Under the pieces are notes generated by a model. It was not told the origin of the DNA, ran no database searches, and saw only the letters and a program-made list of their open reading frames with translations. A DNA stretch of 64,000 nt from Clostridia bacterium (GTDB taxonomy: Bacteria; Bacillota; Clostridia; Christensenellales; CAG-917), in NCBI GenBank assembly GCA_017461985.1, contig JAFTSA010000004.1:262053-326052 (forward strand), written 5' to 3'. Position numbers and translations under genes: made by a program. Below, piece by piece: positions 11,892-15,204 of this stretch (its first letter is position 1; each line of letters starts with the position of its first letter).

Positions 11892-12359
11892 CTAAAACCT
11901 GATATACGGTTGTATTTTTACGTTTGTTTTTGAGATTGTTATTTCTTTAGGGTTTTTGTCCCCTGTGAGAATTGTGAATGAGTTTTCGTCGTGAGAGATG
12001 AGTTTTCCGTGGCGTTTGCCCTCTTCGTCCTTGACTTCGATTTCGGTGTCAAGTGCTCTGCGGAAGTCATCCATTGTGACGATGGGACGATCAAGTCCTG
12101 ATGAAGACACGTTGAGGACGTATTCTTCGGGGAAAAGCTCCTCGTATTTGTCCATAATGGGGTCAAGTGCGTTGTGGACTGTTTCGCATCCGTTGAGGTC
12201 AACGCCGTCTTTTGACCAAATGAAGACCGTGAGATTGTATCTGCCGTATTCCTTGAAGTATTTGATTTCAACCACTTCATAGCCATTTGCTTCAACAACT
12301 TCGGTTATGGACTTTTCAATGAGTTCTGCGGCTTCTGCGCTTACAAATTTGTCTGCCAT
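11892..12359 (-). CDS. rimP: Ribosome maturation factor RimP
   Basis: 155 aa with YELVEIKY-type N-terminal block and SSSGLDRP. Directly upstream of nusA. Confidence 0.9.
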   Translation of the reverse strand: MADKFVSAEAAELIEKSITEVVEANGYEVVEIKYFKEYGRYNLTVFIWSKDGVDLNGCETVHNALDPIMDKYEELFPEEYVLNVSSSGLDRPIVTMDDFRRALDTEIEVKDEEGKRHGKLISHDENSFTILTGDKNPKEITISKTNVKIQPYIRF

Positions 12360-12379
12360 TTTAACTCCTTATAATGAGA

Positions 12380-12403
12380 AGAGTGAACCTTTCGGCTCAC
12401 TCT
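12380..12403 (-). promoter_or_regulatory. 10-bp GAAA-tetraloop hairpin in the rimP-nusA leader, just 5' of the Shine-Dalgarno
   Basis: The minus strand reads AGAGUGAGCC GAAA GGUUCACUCU, followed by UCUCAUUAUAAGGAG and the rimP ATG. A TTGCAA-17-TAATAT promoter lies about 70 nt upstream. Confidence 0.5.
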
Positions 12404-12546
12404 ATCTAGCGTTTACTATTTAGCATAGTGATATTAACATATAAAAATACTTTTTGCAAGCAAAATTGATGATTATTTTTGACCTAAATATAAAATATTT
12501 ATGTGCAAAGTCAAAATCATCAAGGATTTTGCCGATTTTGCTCTAT

Positions 12547-14130
12547 TTATGACAATCTTTTTGCAAGGACTTTCAACAGTTCCGCCGTGGCATACACGTC
12601 TGCGATTGCGCGGTGCGCGTTTTCGTGAGAAATGTTCAAGTTCTTTGACAAACTGCCAAGGTCAAAACGTTTGAATTCCTTGAGGTGTTCTCTTGCAAGA
12701 AGCAAGGTGTCCACCAAGTCGTTGTCAAATTTGTAGCCCTCTTCTCTTGCATACTTTTCAAGCAAAGGATAATCGTAGCCAGAAATGTTATGACCTACAA
12801 GAACTGCATCTCTTGTAAACTTGAAGAAGTCAGGAAGAACCTCTTCAAATTTGGGTGCAAACTTGACCATTTCGTTTGTGATTGAAGTGAGGTCGGTTAT
12901 GAAATCTGAAATGAGTTCATTGGGTTTGACAAAAGTTTGGAAGACCTCTGTGAGTTTGCCGTTTACCATTTTCACTGCAGCAAGTTCAATTGGCTCAGCA
13001 GTATTGATATATTTGTCGGTTGCCTCAAAGTCAAAGATGACAAAAGTCTTGTCTTTCAAGAACTCAGGCACAACCACTTCACCTGCAAACAAACTGTCTT
13101 GAGAAATGGTGTTGTAAGGTGTCGGGAGCACCTTGTTGTACTTTGCAGGGCAAGGCTTGTTTTGAACCGTTTGAATTGAATCGAATTGGATAGAACACCT
13201 AAAAATGCCGTCAAGGGTGTATGACAATGCTCCGTTGTAAGTGGAGATTGACACGTTGCCAACGCAGATGACTTCTTCCCCTTCATTCAGTGATTTCAGT
13301 GCTTCAACGTCGTTTTGTCTAGGGAAACAAACACATTCAATTTTTGCCGTCGTGTCGTCTATTATGCACCTAAACATAGGCTTCATTTCAGGCTCACGGG
13401 AATTGGGGTCGTCAGGATTGTACTTCTTGTTTTTGAATTCTCTATGTTGAATTCCACTGATTTTTCCACAAAGAACAACGTTTTCAGCAGGATTTTTGAT
13501 GTCACAAATGTAGTTGGGCATTTGATTTATGCCACTGATTTTGCCTCTTGCATACACTTTGTCGCAACCATCGGTTTTGATGAGTCTAAATGATTGTCCT
13601 GTTGTAAAGGTACGCTTAGGCATTAGGTCCTCTGCCTTGATATTTTCAGGGTCAACCACTCTTTCTATGTAGGTGACTTCAACTGTGCCGTTGAAGGATT
13701 CATCAAGATACTCCTTCAATTTCACGTCGGATTCCTTAGATTTCAAAATCAAGTATGTAGGGCTGTCAAATGTTATTTTTACAATGATTTCATTGTCTTC
13801 AACGGTGACAGAAACATTTTCATCACCAAGAAATTTGAAAAGCATTTGCTCATATTTGTTGAAATACTCGTAGATTTTGTTGGTGACAACCGTTTTGTCT
13901 GCATAAGTGCGGATATACGTAACGTTAATGTTGATGCCGGGAAAAATTTCCTCAACAACCTTTTGCACCTCTGCCTTTTTCTTGTCATCATAGAATTTTG
14001 AATCAAAAGCGGAGATGATGAAACGCACGTCAAGGGAGTGCTTTTCTCTATAATAAGTTGCTGAATTGAACTTCAATTCAGGAAAAGCACCATCTGATTT
14101 TGTCAAAAACTCTTCAAAGAACTTTGTCAT
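12547..14130 (-). CDS. PolC-like N-terminal/OB-fold protein fused to a DEDDh 3'-5' exonuclease, with no polymerase or PHP domain
   Basis: 527 aa. ExoI FVIFDFEATD, ExoII LVGHNISGYDYPLL, ExoIII HRAIADVYATAELL. Upstream is an OB-like segment (VVLCGKISGI...IECVCFPRQNDVEALKSLNEGEEVICVGNV). It occupies the polC slot between ispG and rimP. Confidence 0.75.
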   Translation of the reverse strand: MTKFFEEFLTKSDGAFPELKFNSATYYREKHSLDVRFIISAFDSKFYDDKKKAEVQKVVEEIFPGININVTYIRTYADKTVVTNKIYEYFNKYEQMLFKFLGDENVSVTVEDNEIIVKITFDSPTYLILKSKESDVKLKEYLDESFNGTVEVTYIERVVDPENIKAEDLMPKRTFTTGQSFRLIKTDGCDKVYARGKISGINQMPNYICDIKNPAENVVLCGKISGIQHREFKNKKYNPDDPNSREPEMKPMFRCIIDDTTAKIECVCFPRQNDVEALKSLNEGEEVICVGNVSISTYNGALSYTLDGIFRCSIQFDSIQTVQNKPCPAKYNKVLPTPYNTISQDSLFAGEVVVPEFLKDKTFVIFDFEATDKYINTAEPIELAAVKMVNGKLTEVFQTFVKPNELISDFITDLTSITNEMVKFAPKFEEVLPDFFKFTRDAVLVGHNISGYDYPLLEKYAREEGYKFDNDLVDTLLLAREHLKEFKRFDLGSLSKNLNISHENAHRAIADVYATAELLKVLAKRLS

Positions 14131-14157: not shown

Positions 14158-15204
14158 TTAGATAAATTGTTCAAGCAGAGCCATAAACTCTTGCATAAGT
14201 ATTTCGCTGGGCACGGTTTTGTAGATTTCACCATTTTTCAAAAGCACGGATTTTTCCTTTCCACCGGCAATGCCGAGGTCACTGCCCTCGCCTTCGCCGA
14301 TGCCATTCAAAGGACAGCCCATAACAGAGATTTTAAGGGGTTTTGTCACGTGGGCGGTCAATCTTTCAACCTCTTCTGCAAGGCCTTGCACGTCGATTTC
14401 TGTGCGTGCACAAGTGGGACAAGACACAACTTCTACTCCGCTGTTTCTAAGGCCTAGGGCGCGTAATATTGCCTTGCCTGCATAAACTTCTTCAACAACG
14501 GGTGCGGACAATGAAACTCTAATTGTGTCACCGATGCCTTCTTCAAGAAGTGTGCCGATGCCAATTGAGGACTTGATAAGTCCGCTCTTCAGTGTGCCTG
14601 CCTCGGTGACGCCAAGGTGCAAAGGATAATCGCATACTTTTGCAAGTTTGCGGTTGGATTCAATCATTGTGAGGACGTTTGAAGCCTTGATTGCTACGAT
14701 AATATTTGAAAAACCAAATTTTTCAAAGGTGTCTGCAGTTGAAAGCGCGCTTGCGACAAGAGCGTCATCTTCGCTCATGCCCTTGAATTGCTTGTCAAGA
14801 CTGCCTCCATTTACGCCAATGCGCACGGGCACATTGTAATCGTTGAGAATTGCAACGAGATTTTTTATGTGCTCACCGTCAGTTGCCATATTGCCGGGAT
14901 TCATGCGGAGTTTTTTTGCTCCTGCTTTCACGGCAAGTTCTGCAAGTTTGTATGAGTAATGGACGTCTGCAATAAGAGGCAAACCACAGCGGTCGGCAAT
15001 GACCTTGAATGCCTCTGCGGACTTCTCGTCAGGCACGGCAAGACGGATAAGGTCGCAACCAGCGTTTTTGAGGTCTGCTATTTGTTGCAATGAGCCTTCA
15101 ACGTCGGTGGTTTTTGTGTTGAGCATAGATTGCACCGTTATGGGTGCATTTCCGCCGACTTTTATATCCCCTATGCTTATTTCTCGTGAGTATCTTCTTA
15201 TCAT
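14158..15204 (-). CDS. ispG: 4-hydroxy-3-methylbut-2-en-1-yl diphosphate synthase
   Basis: GGNAPITVQSMLNT, DLIRLAVPD and C-terminal cysteine ligands (VSCPTCART, MGCPLNGIGE). Confidence 0.95.
   Translation of the reverse strand: MIRRYSREISIGDIKVGGNAPITVQSMLNTKTTDVEGSLQQIADLKNAGCDLIRLAVPDEKSAEAFKVIADRCGLPLIADVHYSYKLAELAVKAGAKKLRMNPGNMATDGEHIKNLVAILNDYNVPVRIGVNGGSLDKQFKGMSEDDALVASALSTADTFEKFGFSNIIVAIKASNVLTMIESNRKLAKVCDYPLHLGVTEAGTLKSGLIKSSIGIGTLLEEGIGDTIRVSLSAPVVEEVYAGKAILRALGLRNSGVEVVSCPTCARTEIDVQGLAEEVERLTAHVTKPLKISVMGCPLNGIGEGEGSDLGIAGGKEKSVLLKNGEIYKTVPSEILMQEFMALLEQFI

Follow-up and report, generated by a model that had tools for sequence, protein, structure and literature searches.

The gene here termed X is located at positions 12547 to 14130 on the minus strand of a 64,000-nucleotide stretch of DNA (contig C2, positions 262053 to 326052, in the following referred to as the window) from the draft genome of a Clostridia bacterium of the order Christensenellales, at the place where relatives carry the gene of the replicative DNA polymerase PolC. 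Homology, synteny and distribution show that X arose in place from polC and has kept no polymerase part. In one ancestor within the order, polC has lost the C-terminal piece of the PHP domain, the palm, thumb and fingers, the HhH domain and the C-terminal clamp motif, together with some 50 residues from the N-terminal piece of PHP. The resulting gene is conserved and vertically inherited, and its host has a DnaE1-only replication system with a single C-family polymerase and without PolC. By analogy to characterized replisomes, we consider it probable (with a rough probability of 0.6) that the X protein is a PolC-derived accessory subunit of the DnaE1 replisome, which would act as clamp-tethered proofreader in trans and as scaffold.

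The open reading frame (ORF) of X extends from an ATG to a TAA codon on the minus strand and encodes 527 residues, which are organized into the parts listed below with their positions in the window. Models were predicted by AlphaFold2 and their confidence is expressed as predicted local distance difference test (pLDDT) score.

12547 to 14130, minus strand: gene X including its stop codon, encoding a PolC-derived protein with N-terminal domain, OB fold, linker and DEDDh exonuclease (ORF list and translation; colinear hhalign alignment to PolC 7-584; AlphaFold2 model).
13900 to 14130, minus strand: first half of the N-terminal domain, α-β-β-α-α-β (type II KH-like), residues 1-77 (AlphaFold2 secondary structure; hhalign to the PolC N-terminus).
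13651 to 13899, minus strand: second half of the N-terminal domain, α-β-β-α-α-β, residues 78-160 (AlphaFold2 models; hhalign of residues 1-165 to PolC 28-169).
13579 to 13650, minus strand: disordered spacer between N-terminal domain and OB fold, residues 161-184 (pLDDT below 50 at residues 169-180; variable alignment columns).
13177 to 13578, minus strand: OB fold, homologous to the PolC OB domain, residues 185-318 (Pfam tRNA_anti-codon at residues 248-303; hhalign; Foldseek).
13060 to 13176, minus strand: shortened linker between OB fold and exonuclease with the sequence K-P-x-P-x-x-Y-x-x-V-x-P-x-P-Y, residues 319-357 (alignment of 63 family members; spacer comparison; hhalign).
13087 to 13101, minus strand: candidate sliding-clamp-binding motif QDSLF, residues 344-348 (translation, column counts and motif enrichment).
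12550 to 13059, minus strand: DEDDh 3'-5' exonuclease of the PolC type, residues 358-527, ending at the last helix of the domain (Pfam RNase_T; best NCBIfam and PDB matches).

The exonuclease is detected by Pfam as RNase_T/DEDDh domain (PF00929, residues 364-519, E-value 1.7e-33, 116.9 bits at a cut-off of 24) and contains the motifs FDFEATD (residues 366-372), HNISGYDYPLL (447-457) and HRAIADVYA (506-514) with intact catalytic residues (D367, E369, D453, H506 and D511), while its last helix (residues 508-526 in translation and model) constitutes the C-terminus of the protein. Pfam further identifies an OB fold (tRNA_anti-codon, residues 248-303, E-value 4.9e-7), but no domain within the first 240 residues and no match to PHP, DNA_pol3_alpha, finger or HHH_6 in the entire protein. 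The top match among NCBIfam models is the PolC model NF001688, which aligns at model positions 419-588 with 147.4 bits and thus below its cut-off of 873. The scores for TIGR01405 (PolC, 134 bits compared to a cut-off of 1043) and the proteobacterial dnaQ model TIGR01406 (54 compared to 223) equally remain below threshold and the generic dnaQ-domain model TIGR00573 is passed (82.7 compared to 71.5). As closest sequence matches in the PDB, we find the PolC exonuclease domains of Enterococcus faecium (9QPC) and Thermotoga maritima (2P1J). Public annotations list proteins of the X family as 'hypothetical' or 'exonuclease domain-containing'.

The AlphaFold2 model of X shows a mean pLDDT of 86.5, which increases to 94.5 for the N-terminal domain modelled alone, and predicts residues 1-157 to fold into two successive α-β-β-α-α-β units. 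In a Foldseek search with the full model, the top PDB match is the E. faecium PolC structure 9QPC, aligned over 400 columns covering OB fold and exonuclease. Since the N-terminal domain of PolC is not resolved in 9QPC (PMC12592400), its direct structural comparison with X is not possible. The two units of the model correspond to the pair of type II KH-like units that has been predicted for the PolC domain (Timinskas & Venclovas 2011, as cited in PMC3919608). We have also considered X as supplier of a missing C-terminal domain of tau and rejected this idea, as DnaX of this organism comprises 498 residues and contains its own C-terminal domain; tau domain V is absent from the top 50 matches of a fold search with the N-terminal domain of X.

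The relationship of the entire X protein to PolC is evident in a comparison of sequence profiles by hhalign, using a family alignment of 63 X members (A1) and a PolC profile derived from 44 proteins of the same order. In this comparison, the whole of X is colinear with PolC 7-584. Residues 1-165 match PolC 28-169 (probability 93.9, E-value 1.6e-7), residues 166-345 match PolC 206-331 (probability 97.6, E-value 3.4e-12) and for residues 1-345 combined, the match to the PolC N-terminus reaches an E-value of 5.5e-18. Conversely, a control with a column-reversed PolC alignment yielded nothing better than an E-value of 0.38. Other methods are blind to the N-terminal homology: BLASTP searches of X against the PolCs of relatives matched the exonuclease alone, at 35-42% identity, leaving the N-terminal region unmatched, and Pfam did not detect the PolC NI or NII domains in X or any of the 63 family members. 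Profile-profile comparison was thus the sole method that worked. The first-pass annotation had described an OB-fold-like segment and an N-terminus laid out as in PolC upstream of a complete DEDDh exonuclease in a protein of 527 residues. The length and all three quoted exonuclease motifs are as described, and the proposed similarity to PolC, which in BLASTP is restricted to the exonuclease, extends in the profile comparison to the N-terminal 345 residues.

The spacer between the end of the OB domain and the start of the exonuclease encompasses 41 residues in X compared to 91-92 in PolC, indicating that the deletion has removed not only everything located 3' of the exonuclease but also roughly 50 residues from the N-terminal piece of PHP. 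Within this spacer, hhalign places the invariant V-x-P-x-P-Y of X on V-Q-A-F-P-x-A-Y of PolC and, judged from sequence, a stretch of about 15 residues around this motif may be what is left of the PHP domain. In PolC, the PHP domain is split by the inserted exonuclease, whereas in X nothing follows the exonuclease. The shortened spacer and the conservation of the gene down to less than 30% identity are in line with the earlier judgement that X is not a simple frameshift or truncation. In a tree of 143 exonuclease domains, 81 X sequences are located on one side of a branch with a support of 94 in the SH-like approximate likelihood ratio test (SH-aLRT), among PolC domains, whose deeper order is not resolved. 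This placement of the X exonucleases as clade among PolC domains fits a single origin and assigns X to the PolC and not to the dnaQ lineage.

The second line of evidence concerns the genomic location. X is part of the minus-strand gene order rpsB-tsf-pyrH-frr-uppS-cdsA-dxr-rseP-ispG-X-rimP-nusA-ylxR-ylxQ-infB-rbfA-nrnA-truB-ribF. In four PolC-bearing genomes of the order (L009-L012), polC is found between ispG and rimP/nusA, in the same slot, which in relatives holds a polC of 1,330-1,500 residues. In Clostridia and Bacilli, this slot, delimited by ispG (or rseP) and rimP-nusA-infB, is the usual position of polC. The segment of this arrangement from cdsA to infB with X in the polC slot had been recognized before and is confirmed, as is the clean end of the ORF 187 base pairs (bp) ahead of rimP, where a six-frame search with the PolC model retrieved no polymerase remnant. 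The immediate surroundings of X are as follows.

14158 to 15204, minus strand: ispG, the upstream neighbour, whose stop codon is located 27 bp before the start of X (ORF calls and gene order).
12360 to 12546, minus strand: spacer of 187 bp between X and rimP without polymerase remnant (six-frame PolC-model search empty here).
11892 to 12359, minus strand: rimP, the downstream neighbour, which opens the rimP-nusA-infB block (gene order).

A third line of evidence is provided by the distribution of X and PolC. In a sample of 121 genomes of the order, 63 contain PolC above the model cut-off and 58 contain X instead, and the two were not found together in any of the genomes searched; polC has thus been reduced to X in about half of the sample. 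The presence of PolC is all-or-none in each family-level group. A profile of the X family finds a match in 57 of the 58 PolC-less genomes, and the remaining one (G038) also contains X. Where complete, these matches correspond to ORFs of about 500-560 residues, most of them covering nearly the whole model and a few being cut by contig ends or found in pieces. PolC-bearing genomes match the same profile solely by the exonuclease inside their PolC ORF and do not contain a separate copy of the X architecture. They also encode a DnaE of about 1,160-1,220 residues. PolC plus DnaE1 was therefore the ancestral state, in which X has taken the place of PolC. In a sample of 251 genomes from the whole class, X of full length is confined to this order.

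Within the order, X spans at least 18 family-level groups, including Christensenellaceae-like metagenome-assembled genomes (MAGs) such as Candidatus Coproplasma, Onthoplasma, Scatosoma and Gallimonas, and apparently none of the lineages with X is known other than from MAGs. Full-length X was found in 80 of 80 species-level genomes, directly embedded as ispG-X-rimP/nusA in 55, with X placed between rseP and rimP in most of the remaining 25 loci, and the survey of related genomes thereby recovers the same short gene at the same locus. The occurrence of an ORF of about 500-560 residues in these 80 genomes and in all of the PolC-less genomes sampled from the order argues against a chance ORF or an assembly artefact. 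Members of the family are found in 132 clusters with identities down to 28%, and a search with a profile of the N-terminal domain against 1.84 billion representatives retrieved 582 clusters at 50% identity, 406 of which with E-values of 1e-10 or lower; the best 150 of these matches are all X-type (of X length or fragments), a range in which PolC matches could not show. The residues of the D-E-D-D-h signature are invariant in the 63 aligned and in 81 species-level X sequences, although latter set was collected by a pattern requiring motif I and is thus biased toward intact exonucleases.

Several observations accompany this distribution. X-bearing genomes have a size of about 0.8-2.3 Mb (typically about 1.6) compared to about 1.3-3.9 Mb (typically about 2.2) in PolC-bearing genomes of the same order, and the loss of the polymerase thus goes with genome reduction. 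Small stand-alone PolC-type exonucleases of 190-300 residues are found in some genomes of the order sample, both X- and PolC-bearing. Across the class, 41 of the 251 genomes showed no match to a PolC-type exonuclease at E-values of 1e-25 or below (examples are found in families f43, f56, f65, f82 and most of f63). None of them contains the X architecture and they may represent further DnaE1-only Clostridia or carriers of an exonuclease-less PolC as described in PMC3919608.

The assembly, a draft of 1.41 Mb in 10 contigs with a completeness of 98.5%, contains a single match to the catalytic domain of the polymerase III α subunit (PF07733), which resides in a DnaE of 1,196 residues (C9:170741-174331). 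This protein passes the model NF005298 (1329.6 bits compared to a cut-off of 1260) and consists of PHP, palm, fingers, HhH and OB domains and a C-terminal region, with QMSLF as internal clamp motif. Its nine PHP metal ligands are intact in an alignment to the pattern HHDHEH[C/H]DH described in PMC12926913, and its assignment as DnaE1 and not DnaE3 is based on this motif and on architecture, not on a tree. When all six reading frames of the genome were searched with the PolC model, no full PolC was revealed; the matches comprised the exonuclease part of X and weak cross-matches to the DnaE ORF on contig 9. The searches with the PolC model and PF07733 thus reject a split or relocated PolC, and with one DnaE and no full polC in the genome, the relocated replicase offered as alternative in the first-pass annotation does not hold. 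DnaE1-only replication was already known in some Clostridia (PMC3919608). As the only C-family polymerase left, DnaE would have to replicate both strands. X lacks a polymerase core and cannot polymerize DNA.

X is also the sole strong DnaQ/PolC-type exonuclease of the genome. A further RNase_T-like match (26 bits on PF00929) is a protein of 277 residues located outside of the window at about 50 kb of contig C8 (49850-50704), which combines an N-terminal DEDDh-like exonuclease (FFDIECS ... HKSDDDAH) with a long basic tail rich in K, Q and S. In the host DnaE, we noticed an insertion of 18 residues in the PHP domain (HQVFKKDDEGKLKSVTAY) and an acidic insertion near the OB domain. The DnaE of family f26 (L166-L168; G115, G061, G089) carries an insertion of about 40-52 residues inside the PHP domain, and such insertions in PHP or near OB in the host and in f26 could be lineage-specific contact sites.

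A potential mode of interaction of X with the replication machinery is suggested by its linker. This region is variable except for the sequence K-P-x-P-x-x-Y-x-x-V-x-P-x-P-Y, in which Y331 and P336 are invariant in the 63 aligned family members, and a motif Q-x-[ST]-L-[FL]-[DE] a few residues later. In the same alignment, the columns of this motif are occupied by Q in 44, S or T in 46, L in 53 and F or L in 53 of the 63 sequences. The pattern Q.[STDN][LMIF][FLIM] is found in 55 of 81 linkers, where 0.02 would be expected at the frequency observed outside of the linker, with variants such as QADLF, QTDMF, QSDLF, QDNLF and similar in the 81 species-level sequences. The PolCs of relatives end in Q-[ILV]-[ST]-L-F and the host DnaE contains QMSLF, both sharing the form of the linker motif. 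In the model, residues 341-350 constitute the one low-confidence stretch of the linker with a mean pLDDT of 56 and are probably disordered, as expected of a short linear motif.

Based on these features, X would be tethered to the β sliding clamp beside DnaE by the Q-x-S/T-L-F motif of its linker. Its OB fold may hold the single-stranded template or a frayed primer, and its exonuclease would act in trans to excise misincorporated nucleotides from 3' ends, sharing the proofreading with the PHP site of DnaE. In addition, as two families keep the protein with a dead exonuclease, the module consisting of N-terminal domain, OB fold and linker must serve the replisome in a way that does not depend on catalysis (binding or scaffolding) and that alone suffices to preserve the gene. 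The proposal of a trans proofreader in a DnaE1 replisome draws on three precedents, namely PolC of B. subtilis, DnaQ of mycobacteria and ε of E. coli. The first-pass annotation had suggested a stand-alone PolC-derived proofreader or clamp-interacting module, which is favoured by our evidence and to which exonuclease-dead orthologues in two lineages, described below, are an addition.

In B. subtilis, the exonuclease of PolC proofreads DnaE in trans within a complex of DnaE, PolC and template (PMC5627055), and as proposed for X, an exonuclease of the PolC type acts on primer ends made by DnaE by means of a contact between PolC and DnaE. By analogy, X could preserve this activity. In B. subtilis, however, the exonuclease resides within a full and active PolC, and the DnaE of this organism belongs to the DnaE3 type and has no PHP activity. 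In mycobacteria, a non-canonical DnaQ is bound to the clamp and shares the proofreading with the PHP site of DnaE1 (PMC11348249). Both systems combine a DnaE1 with intact PHP site with an accessory DEDDh exonuclease reaching the primer end via the β clamp, latter being proposed for X, but the mycobacterial protein has another domain make-up and ancestry and its clamp motif is dispensable for the antimutator effect. In E. coli, DnaQ (ε), the separate proofreading subunit of the DnaE-based polymerase III core, acts as exonuclease on a tether and possesses a clamp motif (PMC3664792). Both X and ε are separate DEDDh exonucleases of systems with DnaE1 as sole replicase, and a flexible segment near the exonuclease carries a clamp-type motif in ε (PMC3664792) and a candidate for such a motif in X. 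Unlike X, ε contains neither N-terminal domain nor OB fold, its C-terminal segment binds the PHP domain of α and its clamp motif is located after and not before the exonuclease.

With respect to PolC itself (NF001688/TIGR01405; 3F2B, 9QPC), X shares the genomic slot and a homologous and colinear N-terminal domain, OB fold and DEDDh exonuclease, whereas the PHP domain (apart from the putative vestige), palm, thumb and fingers, the HhH domain and the C-terminal clamp motif are absent. Previously reported variants of C-family systems include DnaE1-only Clostridia, PolC without exonuclease insert and, in Bacteroidetes, a DnaE1 with an exonuclease fused to its N-terminus (PMC3919608, PMC12926913). 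As in the case of X, they illustrate that the clostridial system of PolC and DnaE1 is labile and that exonuclease modules are shuffled, yet none of them is a polymerase-less PolC. We found no published description of the X architecture in the literature, and the surveys mention neither the architecture nor Christensenellales. They were based on complete genomes and did not consider truncated sequences (PMC3919608, PMC12926913).

A distinct facet of the family is found in seven of the 58 PolC-less genomes, belonging to the family-level groups f26 (four genomes) and f42 (three genomes), in which all DEDDh residues of X are replaced. In these proteins of 500-552 residues, motifs I, II and III are all substituted, as illustrated by the change of FDFEAT to VLHYNGT or TAAIRAI, while the N-terminal domain, the OB fold, the KP.PP..Y stretch and Q-x-x-F are retained. 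The gene remains in the slot dxr-rseP-ispG-X-rimP-nusA-infB in the two orthologues checked per family. A tree of 88 X proteins recovers f26 and f42 each as a clade (support 100) and places the dead state as two changes, with the caveat of long branches. The retention of a gene with dead exonuclease in two families implies that X must also have a non-catalytic role. The PHP ligands of DnaE are intact in five of the dead-X genomes, and the remaining 51 PolC-less genomes sampled retain the DEDDh residues. The dead X of f42 (L159-L161; G042, G074, G101) contains an extra insertion of about 30 residues in its OB fold, which is helical and charged and follows the third strand.

Several points weigh against X as clamp-tethered trans proofreader. 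In light of the dead proteins of f26 and f42, proofreading cannot be its only, nor an indispensable, function. The PHP site of DnaE is intact wherever checked and may thus proofread alone. X does not contain a C-terminal segment akin to the one by which ε of E. coli binds the PHP domain of α. With respect to the clamp motif, 26 of the 81 linkers deviate from the strict pattern, most of them reading Q-x-G-L-F or x-x-x-[LV]-F-D. Moreover, hhalign aligns the motif with a former PHP strand of PolC and its shape could thus be partly inherited. A fold search with the N-terminal domain alone retrieved generic tandem α/β domains (BON, the ring motif of type III secretion systems and the KH domains of NusA), which at the level of models fits a KH-like fold but leaves the homology unsettled. 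Finally, the X-bearing organisms are uncultured MAGs.

An alternative view would regard X as mainly non-catalytic adaptor of the replisome, directed to DnaE, the clamp, the clamp loader, helicase/primase or single-stranded DNA-binding protein (SSB), with the exonuclease as dispensable passenger. It finds support in the orthologues of 500-550 residues that f26 and f42 keep in the same slot after the loss of every DEDDh residue, in the two independent inactivations required by the tree, in the persistence of N-terminal domain, OB fold and the linker elements KP.P..Y and Q..F in the dead proteins and in the intact PHP proofreading site of DnaE in the same genomes. We nevertheless consider this view rather unlikely, since the invariance of the catalytic residues in the 51 other PolC-less genomes and in the sets of 63 and 81 sequences points to selection on catalysis in most lineages, and no partner of the N-terminal domain of PolC is known. 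As a tentative extension, the N-terminal module of PolC, combining KH-like domain and OB fold, might have an essential, polymerase-independent role in the Firmicute replisome, which here would survive as separate subunit of the DnaE1 replicase and which is kept despite two independent deaths of the exonuclease. If so, X would be a new kind of replisome subunit and its lineage a natural dissection of PolC.

A function off the replication fork, as PolC-derived 3'-5' exonuclease in DNA repair or recombination comparable to ExoI, ExoX or the N-terminal exonuclease of DinG, appears improbable. Foldseek does return ExoI, ExoX, TREX1 and the exonuclease domain of DinG, the combination of an OB fold with a DEDDh exonuclease is a common design for the processing of single-stranded DNA ends, and clamp motifs occur in repair proteins too. 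However, X and PolC are strictly exclusive, with X remaining at the site of polC within an operon of housekeeping genes, the exonucleases most closely related to X belong to PolC and the PolC-bearing relatives do not encode a separate copy of its architecture. A further possibility, in which a generic exonuclease of the DnaQ type has been fused to N-terminal domains unrelated to PolC and is found beside rimP by coincidence, is regarded as very improbable. The failure of the Pfam and NCBIfam models of the PolC N-terminus to detect X and the restriction of BLASTP matches to the exonuclease would agree with such a fusion, but the colinear and significant match of the N-terminal 345 residues to PolC with clean controls, two α-β-β-α-α-β halves with the topology predicted for the N-terminal domain of PolC (PMC3919608), synteny and the mutual exclusion with PolC oppose it. 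Finally, the shortness of the gene and the 10-contig draft might raise the suspicion that polC is decaying into a pseudogene here, has been frameshifted or misassembled, or is split into two parts, one of which is X. These possibilities can practically be dismissed, given an ORF that is intact and constant in length across 80 species and over 400 clusters at 50% identity, the absence of a PolC polymerase part anywhere in the 98.5%-complete genome including the 187-bp spacer and an orthodox DnaE as sole α subunit, which is also found in PolC-bearing relatives.

PolC is treated as the defining and essential replicase of Firmicutes, but in the present case it has been taken apart in a large and coherent set of gut Clostridia, which rely on DnaE1 alone for replication. 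The case documents the step from a system of PolC and DnaE1 to one with DnaE1 only and a built-in proofreader becoming a separate subunit, as is ε in E. coli. The parts retained in X indicate what is of value in PolC even without the polymerase, and the function of its N-terminal domain and OB fold thereby becomes directly testable, with the exonuclease-dead lineages serving as natural controls to separate catalytic from structural roles. There may also be consequences for antibiotics targeting PolC, which are in development (PMC12592400). In gut commensals carrying X, such compounds would find no polymerase target, which bears on the sparing of the microbiome.

A last observation concerns the distribution of genes on the two strands of contig C2, where ORFs of at least 200 residues are found on the plus strand in about 80% of cases between 0 and 240 kb and on the minus strand in about 88% between 280 and 326 kb. 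The preferred strand changes at about 240-280 kb, close to where the window begins, and this switch probably marks a replication origin or terminus. A link between PolC and a strand-biased gene distribution has been proposed (PMC4070872), and the strong strand bias that is kept here without PolC bears on this proposal.

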